Shown: positions 9,001-12,000, numbered from the stretch's first letter. The stretch: DNA of 23,307 nucleotides from Escherichia coli (GCF_003334255.1 NZ_QOWU01000066.1), one strand, 5' to 3'. A program made the numbers.

Positions 9001-12000
9001 ATAGGGCTGATAGCGATCGTCCTGTGGAGCACGATGGTAGGATTGATTCGCGGTGTCAGTGAGGGGCTCGGCCCGGTCGGCGGCGCAGCTGCTATCTATT
9101 CATTAAGCGGGCTGCTGTTAATCTTCACGGTTGGATTTCCGCGTATTCGGCAAATCCCGAAAGGCTATTTACTCGCCGGGAGTCTGTTATTCGTCAGCTA
9201 TGAAATCTGTCTGGCGCTTTCCTTAGGGTATGCGGCGACCCATCATCAGGCGATTGAAGTGGGTATGGTGAACTATCTGTGGCCCAGCCTGACAATTCTC
9301 TTTGCCATTCTGTTTAATGGTCAGAAAACCAACTGGTTGATTGTACCTGGATTATTATTAGCCCTCGTCGGCGTCTGTTGGGTGTTAGGCGGTGACAATG
9401 GGTTACATTATGATGAAATCATCAATAATATCACCACCAGCCCATTGAGTTATTTCCTGGCGTTCATTGGTGCGTTTATCTGGGCAGCCTATTGCACAGT
9501 AACGAATAAATACGCACGCGGATTTAATGGAATTACCGTTTTTGTCCTGCTAACGGGAGCAAGTCTGTGGGTTTACTATTTTCTTACGCCACAACCAGAA
9601 ATGATATTTAGCACGCCCGTCATGATTAAACTCATCTCTGCGGCATTTACCTTAGGATTTGCTTATGCTGCATGGAATGTCGGTATATTGCATGGCAATG
9701 TCACCATTATGGCGGTAGGTTCGTATTTTACGCCTGTACTTTCCTCAGCGCTTGCAGCCGTGCTGCTCAGCGCCCCGCTGTCGTTCTCGTTCTGGCAAGG
9801 CGCGCTGATGGTCTGCGGCGGTTCCCTGCTCTGCTGGCTGGCGACACGTCGTGGTTAAAATAACTGCCGGGTCTACGGCCCGGTAGTTAATCAGATAAAT
9901 TCCGACAATATTAAAAAAATAAATTTCAAATACCAGTAATTCACCTTATATCTCATTTCGACTTCGATCACATATCGATAAATAATATTATTTCATCTAT
10001 TTTTCTCATTGTTTTTAATCACCATTCTATTTTAAAAACAGTATGTCATTTATAAATGACGCCGTTTAAAATTCGTTTAGAAAATACGTTTAACGATAAT
10101 TAAAAGGATTCTGTTAAATGAAATTAAAAATAGTTGCGGTGGTTGTAACTGGTTTGTTAGCTGCGAACGTAGCACACGCTGCCGAAGTCTATAACAAGGA
10201 TGGTAATAAACTCGACCTTTATGGCAAGGTTACCGCTCTACGTTATTTTACTGATGATAAGCGTGACGATGGTGATAAAACTTATGCCCGTCTCGGCTTT
10301 AAAGGAGAAACGCAAATCAATGATCAAATGATTGGTTTTGGTCACTGGGAATATGATTTTAAAGGCTATAACGATGAAGCCAACGGCTCGCGCGGCAAGA
10401 ATCTCTGATTGAGTTAAGTGCCCATCACAATATGATCACTGACCTTATATTACACAATCATCCCAGGATGAAAACAATCACTTTAAACGACAACCATATT
10501 GCACATTTAAACGCCAAAAACACTACAAAACTGGAATATTTAAACTTAAGCAATAACAATTTACTGCCAACCAATGACATTGATCAACTAATATCATCAA
10601 AACATCTTTGGCATGTATTAGTTAACGGCATCAACAATGATCCACTTGCACAAATGCAGTACTGGACTGCAGTAAGAAATATAATTGATGACACTAATGA
10701 AGTGACCATTGATTTATCAGGACTTAATTTAACCACTCAACCACCAGGGCTGCAAAACTTCACATCTATCAATCTTGATAATAACCAACTCACACATTTT
10801 GATGCAACCAACTACGATAGACTCGTAAAGCTAAGTCTGAATAGTAATGCTCTTGAGTCAATAAATTTTCCTCAAGGCAGAAATGTAAGTATTACACATA
10901 TATCTATGAATAATAATGCTCTCAGAAATATTGATATAGATAGGCTTTCATCAGTTACTTATTTTAGTGCGGCACATAATCAACTAGAGTTTGTGCAATT
11001 AGAATCTTGCGAATGGCTGCAATACCTGAATCTCAGCCATAATCAATTAACTGATATTGTTGCAGGTAATAAAAATGAACTCTTACTGCTGGATCTATCC
11101 CATAATAAACTAACAAGTTTACACAATGACTTATTTCCCAACTTGAATACGTTACTTATTAACAACAATTTGCTTTCTGAAATTAAAATATTCTATAGCA
11201 ACTTCTGCAATGTTCAGACATTAAACGCTGCTAACAACCAGTTGAAATATATAAATCTTGATTTCCTGACTTATCTTCCATCTATCAAAAGTTTAAGACT
11301 GGACAATAATAAAATAACCCACATTGATACTAATAATACATCCGATATTGGAACTTTATTCCCCATAATAAAACAGAGCAAAACTTAAATTTTTTAAATG
11401 TTTCTGGGAAGAACAATTGCCCTACTATGCAGCTCATGTTATTTAATTTGTTTTCCCCAGCACTTAAGCTTAATACTGGCCTGGCAATTCTTTCGCCTGG
11501 TGCATTTGAAGTTCACTCTGACGGAATAGATGTGGATAACGAATTGTTTCACTATCCTATTAAAAAAGCATATACCCCATATAATATACACACTTACAAG
11601 ACAGAGGAAGTTGTAAACCAGAGGAATATAAAAGTTAAAAACATGACCTTAGATGAAATAAACAATACTTACTGTAATAACGATTATTACAATCAGGCAA
11701 TAAGAGAGGAACCGATAGACCTTCTGGACAGATCGTTTTCCTCCAGTTCATGGCCTTTTTAGTGAATAAATCATCACTAATTCTATAAGTGTCTGGTCTT
11801 GTTGATAATATAGTTAATATGTAACCCTTTAGATTCACGATCTGAAGGGTTGAAACATGACATACGTTCAAAGATTAACCCCGTTTGAAGGTTAGCTTGT
11901 TAGTTACATTTAGTAACACATATCTGGCTACTTAATCCCCATTCTGCCCCCGCGGTTACGCTTTCTTATCTATTCTTTCAATCAGCACTTCACCCAATTC

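Follow-up and report, generated by a model that had tools for sequence, protein, structure and literature searches.

yddL of Escherichia coli is probably the remnant, left by one deletion, of an OmpD-type porin gene adjacent to yddG

General porins of the OmpC/OmpF/PhoE family (Pfam Porin_1) are 16-strand trimeric barrels, and their assembly by the beta-barrel assembly machinery (BAM) requires a C-terminal beta-signal ending in an aromatic residue (...YQF). One such porin, OmpD, is in Salmonella, Citrobacter and Enterobacter encoded by a full gene next to yddG and on the same strand, with fdnGHI on one side and narU/narZ beyond. Here, the equivalent position was analysed in a stretch of 23,307 nucleotides from Escherichia coli (GCF_003334255.1, NZ_QOWU01000066.1), referred to as the window, which contains the K-12-type fdnG(-)/yddG/yddL/yddK/yddJ/narU/narZ region and matched several K-12-like chromosomes at 100% identity over positions 9860-12060. 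The position is the same as that of ompD, but the window keeps only codons 1-92 of the porin, as the beginning of yddL, an open reading frame (ORF) of 96 codons with an ATG start (10118-10408, + strand).

Several related loci have been described. The nmpC gene of the K-12 prophage DLP12 encodes a porin of the same OmpD/NmpC clade, the phage porins showing ~75% DNA identity. It is prophage-borne and inactive in K-12 through interruption by IS5, whereas yddL is chromosomal, syntenic with ompD and inactivated by deletion. In S. Typhi, ompD has been lost. The O157:H7 strain EDL933 carries Z2239 (366 amino acids) as the first gene of the O-island 62 region, and yddL is identical to it in residues 1-92 and nucleotides 1-276. 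In carbapenem-resistant E. hormaechei, for which the adjacency of yddG and ompD has been stated, a 2,384-nucleotide deletion takes parts of both genes (PMC11874173). The same porin locus has been lost in E. coli, likewise in particular lineages, but that loss is ancient, fixed in whole phylogroups and without a shown tie to antibiotic selection. Okeke et al. reported in 2011 a resemblance of yddL to the 5′ end of z2239 and of yddJ to the 3′ end of z2242; the form found in enterohaemorrhagic and enteroaggregative E. coli was regarded as ancestral, the K-12 state was ascribed to an insertion of yddK, and the whole island was seen as recently acquired (PMC3079680). With that work on O-island 62 and the annotation of yddL as a pseudogene by the Prokaryotic Genome Annotation Pipeline (PGAP), the remnant status of yddL is essentially already known.

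The explanation we favour, with a probability of roughly 0.88, is that yddL is no new small gene but an ordinary remnant, namely what one deletion left of the yddG-adjacent porin gene. The Escherichia ancestor would have carried a general porin immediately 3′ of yddG. In E. coli, the interval from this porin to narU is occupied by AT-rich leucine-rich repeat (LRR) effector-like genes (Orf1600/Z2240-41 and EspR1/Z2242). In one lineage, a single illegitimate recombination at a microhomology of 3-6 bp would then have removed 1,545 bp and retained the promoter region, the ribosome-binding site, the signal peptide and 71 mature residues. Such a remnant, unable to form a 16-strand barrel and without the ...YQF signal, would have no porin function, and if it were translated and exported, degradation in the periplasm would be the most likely fate of the peptide.

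The porin character of yddL is confined to its first 92 codons. Residues 1-90 matched porins of the OmpF/OmpC/PhoE type in the PDB (OmpF, E = 2.5e-29), with residues 22-91 corresponding to mature residues 1-70 of OmpC-type chains. Both the Sec signal peptide and the conserved mature N-terminus AE(I/V)YNKDGNKLD are present, residues 1-21 and 22-33 aligning to porin precursors. In the NCBIfam porin models the match was limited to profile positions 1-89 of 368 and scored 126.6 bits (cut-off 484); the protein falls short of both this family score and a full-length barrel domain of about 340 mature residues. Codons 1-92, for the signal peptide and mature residues 1-71, match the 366-amino acid porin of O157:H7 at 100% identity; thereafter yddL ends in ...SRGKNL, where the intact allele ends in ...GITYQF, and the C-terminal beta-signal is gone. 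The original prediction, made from the sequence alone, had described a porin fragment that terminates after its first strands, and this was confirmed. It had also stated that the rest of the barrel is missing, and tblastn with a full-length porin detected no further porin coding in 10409-12040 (best E = 1.9); nor did tblastn and blastn with the full-length porin find a porin remnant elsewhere in the window.

Other origins and classes were considered for the fragment. The best phage matches were lambdoid Lc/NmpC-type porins with 75-76% DNA identity over part of the ORF, and a phage origin of yddL was ruled out. A plasmid search returned only mislabelled chromosomes and short matches to the narU flank. 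The 96 amino acids of yddL include no cysteine; a lipobox is therefore absent and the name 'lipoprotein' in some records is unsupported. No Rfam match was found in or near yddL, the sole hit in the window being the selenocysteine insertion sequence (SECIS) element of fdnG.

Comparison of the window with the O157 locus by BLAST gave three collinear blocks, and the long O157-type form yields the K-12 form once 1,545 bp and 653 bp are deleted from it. At the first of the two junctions, the sequence of the window is GCTCGCGCGGCAAGAATCTCTGA; that of the left parent, at porin codon 93, is ...GCTCGCGCG(G/A)(T/C)AACAAGACC, and that of the right parent, within an LRR gene of the Orf1600/Z2241 type, is ...TCTCCCGGCAAGAGTCTCTGA. 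This deletion took the rest of the porin (codons 93-366), the spacer between the genes and codons 1-197 of the LRR gene that follows, and past codon 92/93 the porin frame runs, at an offset of 1, out of frame into the LRR gene, giving GKNL and then a stop.

An AT-rich islet (yddK/yddJ) had instead been proposed to have inserted into, or replaced the 3′ part of, the ancestral porin. The neighbouring DNA is indeed AT-rich, with a GC content of 30-37% across ~10000-11800 against about 50% in the flanks, the LRR genes of the E. coli locus have 34% GC, and they are absent beside the porin of E. albertii; by composition and distribution, this DNA was probably acquired horizontally downstream of the porin. 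However, the same LRR genes sit 3′ of an intact porin in ~1,100 genomes, simple microhomology deletions from the long form reproduce the window, and neither target duplications nor mobile-element ends, the signatures of an insertion, were found at the junction of the first deletion. Insertion into the porin is thus extremely improbable, and the truncation is ascribed to the 1,545-bp deletion.

The second deletion bears on the proposal of Okeke et al. (2011) that an ancestral O-island 62 was disrupted in K-12 by the insertion of a separate gene, yddK. The proposal is in keeping with the lack of a single full-length yddK counterpart in O157, but amino acids 1-96 of YddK share 96% identity with residues 198-293 of Orf1600 and amino acids 93-318 share 89% identity with residues 67-292 of EspR1. 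Because the two parts match these two genes and are joined at a 12-bp repeat, yddK is, on the alignments, a deletion fusion of two resident genes and not an insert, and we regard the insertion of yddK as having next to no probability.

When 9860-12060 was compared by megablast with 5,426 complete E. coli genomes, three states of the locus emerged. The long form (4.39 kb; O157:H7, O55:H7, ST648, ST38 and others) is carried by O157:H7 and phylogroups D/E/F and consists of yddG, the 366-amino acid porin, the LRR gene(s) with EspR1 (three LRR genes, Orf1600/Z2240-41 and EspR1) and narU. The K-12 form (2.2 kb; K-12, O104:H4 and O111:H8 among others) is annotated by PGAP with yddL as 'porin, incomplete, missing C-terminus' and with yddK/yddJ as one frameshifted LRR gene, the RefSeq label reading 'leucine-rich repeat domain-containing protein, frameshifted'. 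In the empty form (Nissle, F11 and other B2 strains), narU follows 272 bp after yddG. Here a 10-bp filler, AAAGCCATTT, was observed between the flanks (L004 5990-6000 in Nissle, equivalent to window 9938/11899), for which no match was found in the long-form loci, the window or E. albertii. On its right side, the B2 loss ends at the same place as the LRR segment when the latter is delimited by E. albertii.

When 301 bp with the first deletion junction in the middle were used as query, 3,132 of the 5,426 genomes (58%) gave a single-piece match, mostly at 100% identity, which suggests that the deletion arose once. The segment removed by it was present in about 1,100-1,119 genomes, and the remaining genomes were without the region; an intact porin at this position was accordingly at hand in about 1,100 genomes. 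The protein cluster of YddL at 90% identity contains 1,186 members, and those listed by name are almost all from E. coli, with one from Shigella sonnei and one from Escherichia sp., being either 96 amino acids long or fragments at contig ends. Homologues of 96 amino acids thus occur only as the deletion allele of E. coli/Shigella, no full-length frame is recoverable in the window, and the description of yddL as a fragment stands.

A scan with YddG as query and one genome per species yielded 80 loci. In many Citrobacter, in S. enterica arizonae/diarizonae, in many Enterobacter and in Lelliottia, yddG was directly followed by a porin gene of the same orientation and was flanked by fdnG on its other side. 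The intact E. coli porin was most similar to such OmpD-type porins, sharing 77% identity with the porin of C. koseri, 70-73% with proteins named 'porin OmpD' in Salmonella/Citrobacter and 70-75% with the yddG-adjacent porins, compared with about 67-68% for the prophage porins NmpC/Lc and 59-62% for OmpC, OmpN, OmpF and PhoE of K-12. A neighbour-joining tree placed it inside the OmpD/NmpC group on a long basal branch, and its GC content is 44% against 48-54% in the other genera. In the 200 bp 5′ of yddL, conserved blocks are also shared with the DNA preceding ompD in Salmonella, Citrobacter and Enterobacter (alignment of 7 sequences from 4 genera). As judged by synteny and similarity, the intact porin is the positional orthologue of OmpD in Salmonella/Citrobacter/Enterobacter; PGAP names it 'porin OmpC' (L001 2758-3858), for which it barely passes the subfamily model (495.8 bits, cut-off 484), and on the same grounds this is a mislabelling of an OmpD-type porin. 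The ancestral ompC/nmpC-like gene suspected in the original prediction can in this way be specified as OmpD-type.

Between ompD and narU, the genera Citrobacter, Salmonella and Enterobacter carry a small ORF, an ORF of 495 amino acids resembling the major facilitator superfamily (MFS) and an ORF of 192 amino acids (L011 9557-12121, L027 9704-12232, L032 9622-11804). The latter two are probably smvA/smvR. Both are absent at this place from Escherichia, where E. coli has the LRR effector-like genes (window 10409-11899) and E. albertii has nothing. In E. albertii (CP034213.1; L090 6137-8014) the same yddG-adjacent porin, with about 90% amino acid identity, is followed by the narU upstream region at about 115 bp. 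Because this species has the porin without the LRR genes, the porin is ancestral at the site, the LRR genes are a later addition 3′ of it in E. coli, and the empty site of the B2 strains represents a loss.

The porin of E. albertii is itself interrupted by IS1 after codon 84, and in E. coli strain 7/2 (L094 1217-2317) an internal stop is found at codon 78. Counted on such alleles, at least four independent inactivations or losses of this porin have occurred in Escherichia, and the separate inactivations by IS1 and by the stop codon show that the porin is dispensable in this genus. It was observed that both of these lesions lie near the K-12 truncation point at codon 92.

Some observations weigh against yddL being a mere remnant. 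The ORF is intact with its ribosome-binding site and signal peptide in thousands of genomes, and the MG1655 reference record (NC_000913.3 1545738-1546028) keeps it as a normal coding sequence, 'putative uncharacterized protein YddL', in conflict with the porin pseudogene of PGAP. yddL was down-regulated in one microarray study (PMC2817434), its mutant in the Keio collection was slightly (low-level) sensitive to boric acid in a screen (PMC11502571), and a co-occurrence analysis by Tan et al. in 2023 proposed a role in osmotic stress (PMC9976479). In addition, an 'internal promoter' has been assigned to yddLKJ (PMC3946193). None of the microarray, Keio and osmotic-role reports is direct evidence of a yddL product. 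A short secreted peptide, as considered in the original prediction, may possibly still be made, the microarray, Keio and promoter data being indirect hints.

If yddL were a functional small gene, its product could be an exported peptide of ~75 amino acids or a mini outer-membrane protein acting in osmotic or envelope stress (Tan et al. 2023). The co-occurrence and expression hints and the weak Keio phenotype may be read in this way, as may the preservation of the ORF in 3,132 genomes and of the promoter-like region, the ribosome-binding site and the signal peptide, which are intact, the last as had been predicted. Yet the C-terminus is an accidental out-of-frame read-through, the beta-signal is missing and 71 residues cannot close a porin barrel. 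Preservation is uninformative here, as the segment is nearly invariant including its synonymous sites, and the intactness of the ORF can also be explained by the youth of the allele together with the scarcity of variation in the segment. Co-occurrence with genes of phylogroups A/B1/C follows from the single clonal origin of the deletion and is to be expected. A functional small gene is for us very unlikely, and the loss of porin function, with decay of any peptide made, would be the consequence of the truncation.

The sole feature of the locus worth following up is a step in diversity at the deletion junction. Over the 276 retained nucleotides (10118-10393), 4,235 of the 4,268 matching E. coli records were at least 99% identical to K-12, whether the porin was truncated or intact, and no difference was found among K-12, O157 and CB6886. 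In an equally long segment of yddG 260 bp away (9583-9858), this level of identity was reached by only 1,346 of 5,405 records, which were typically 96-98% identical. Just 3′ of the junction (276 nucleotides, L001 3035-3310), the 1,118 intact alleles were divided into 346 with at least 99%, 752 with 95-99% and 20 with 90-95% identity. Divergence in yddG and in the 3′ part of the porin is at a normal level of 2-5%. Pairwise differences among ten sequenced intact alleles numbered 0-4 in nucleotides 1-276 and up to 41 in nucleotides 277-1101, and the fixed differences between the O157 and D/F types were 0/276 and 22/825, respectively (Fisher p = 0.002). Each of the five 3′ haplotypes first differs at nucleotides 278-294, the K-12 deletion junction being at nucleotide 277/278. 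On the other side, near-invariance extends about 40-190 bp upstream of 10118, and the left edge of K-12 identity differs by lineage (-36, -54, -164 and -188).

In the retained segment the divergence between E. albertii and E. coli is 15%, the same as in yddG, and nucleotide-level constraint was rejected on this ground as the cause of the invariant 5′ segment. No Chi site is near, and such a site was likewise dismissed as the cause of the breakpoint. The simplest reading is a recent homogenisation, the right boundary of which would lie where homology to the truncated allele runs out. Conversion heteroduplexes stopping at the end of homology would account for the near-identical 276 nucleotides, the varying left edge and the divergence of the 3′ haplotypes at the junction. 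That the truncated majority allele acted as a gene-conversion donor that repeatedly overwrote the 5′ ends of intact porins, or that the segment has a selected nucleotide-level function, is a tentative proposal that we consider possible but short of probable. A sweep or another cause could also underlie the low 5′ diversity.

The same near-invariance across E. coli, with the step exactly at the junction, could suggest that the 5′ fragment is kept for a role as RNA or DNA, either as a decoy for porin-regulating small RNAs (sRNAs) or as a recombination partner for intact alleles. The 5′ untranslated region (5′UTR) and early codons, which are the targets of sRNAs in Salmonella ompD, are retained in yddL. 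However, at the region of the MicC site, described at codons 23-26 for Salmonella ompD, the window reads GAAGTCTATAAC against GAGGTATATAAC in Salmonella ompD, with two disrupting changes. The duplex predicted with MicC is weak (-13.9 kcal/mol for the window, -20.8 for Salmonella ompD and -26.5 for ompC, by prediction only), and a retained MicC target was not supported. Neutral homogenisation can, moreover, give low diversity without function, and a role of the fragment as RNA or DNA is in our view very unlikely, the deletion remnant remaining the preferred explanation.

Upstream of yddL, a ribosome-binding site AAGGA is located at 10104-10108, and a conserved GATCACA block (TTCGA-N6-TCACA) at 9957-9972 would, by its consensus, be CRP-like. 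The upstream palindrome noted in the original prediction exists as GTCATTTATAAATGAC, although the inverted-repeat tool did not list it. With one mismatch in O157 and TGCCATTGACAAAC in its place in other genera, it was rejected as a conserved operator and is probably an incidental, diverged promoter element. The positions of these and the other features of the locus are given in Table 1.

Table 1. Coordinates of features at the yddL locus, counted from the first nucleotide of the window.
Feature	Position	Strand	Description
Retained porin promoter/5′UTR region	9938..10117	+	Left edge ~9938, where the segment lacking in Nissle begins; not present in B2 empty-site strains
Perfect 16-bp palindrome GTCATTTATAAATGAC	10045..10060	.	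Overlaps a weak promoter-like match at 10043-10072
Signal peptide	10118..10180	+	Codons 1-21, expected cleavage after AHA; mature start at residue 22 (porin precursor alignment)
Mature porin residues 1-71	10181..10393	+	Codons 22-92, roughly the first quarter of the mature protein; nucleotides identical to O157 and CB6886 alleles (0 differences in 276 nucleotides)
Deletion 1 junction	10391..10399	.	1,545 bp relative to O157 (O-island 62 difference); window CGCGGCAAG; left parent CGCGG(T/A)AAC; right parent CCCGGCAAG; 3-6-bp microhomology
yddL end	10394..10408	+	GKNL and TGA stop; DNA from the middle of an Orf1600/Z2241-type LRR gene, frame offset 1 relative to orf1600
yddK	10432..11388	+	Chimeric LRR ORF from internal Met198 of an Orf1600-type gene, in-frame fusion to EspR1; LRR-type matches
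Deletion 2 junction	10707..10718	.	653 bp; 12-bp repeat CATTGATTTATC common to both LRR genes
yddJ	11427..11762	+	C-terminal part of EspR1, 93% identity to EspR1 307-417; a frameshift parts yddJ from yddK
Right edge of variable segment	11899..11917	.	Homology to B2 empty-site strains and E. albertii resumes, upstream of narU

The flanks showed some further features. An inverted repeat GTTAC-ATTTA-GTAAC at 11903-11917 opens the conserved narU upstream region; E. albertii has the repeat too, as GTTACATCTGGTAAC, and it may be the binding site of a regulator. Directly past the yddG stop, a GC-rich hairpin CCGGGCCGTAGACCCGG was seen at 9867-9883, which may be the terminator of yddG and had a terminator-like score on the minus strand only. 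The gene fdnG appears as two ORFs (8158-8745 and 5698-8109) because of its in-frame TGA selenocysteine codon, with SECIS_3 at that position (8105-8163, - strand; Rfam, 84.3 bits).

To what was known of yddL, this study adds the exact junctions, which show deletions and not an insertion of yddK, as well as the identity of the intact gene as the positional orthologue of OmpD, by which the porin is ancestral, predates the LRR genes and is not part of a recent island, and the independent recurrence of its inactivation. This matters mostly for annotation, since recent discussion has treated yddL as a gene not yet explored that might act in osmotic stress. With respect to a fourth or fifth general porin, E. 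coli is a polymorphic species: the gene is intact in O157:H7 and in phylogroups D/E/F, and this extra porin could affect the entry of phages, colicins and antibiotics in these strains. The step in diversity at the junction provides a minor example from nature of the way in which an intact allele may be constrained or homogenised by a deletion allele; if the tentative gene-conversion proposal were true, a pseudogene would be influencing how its functional allele evolves throughout E. coli.

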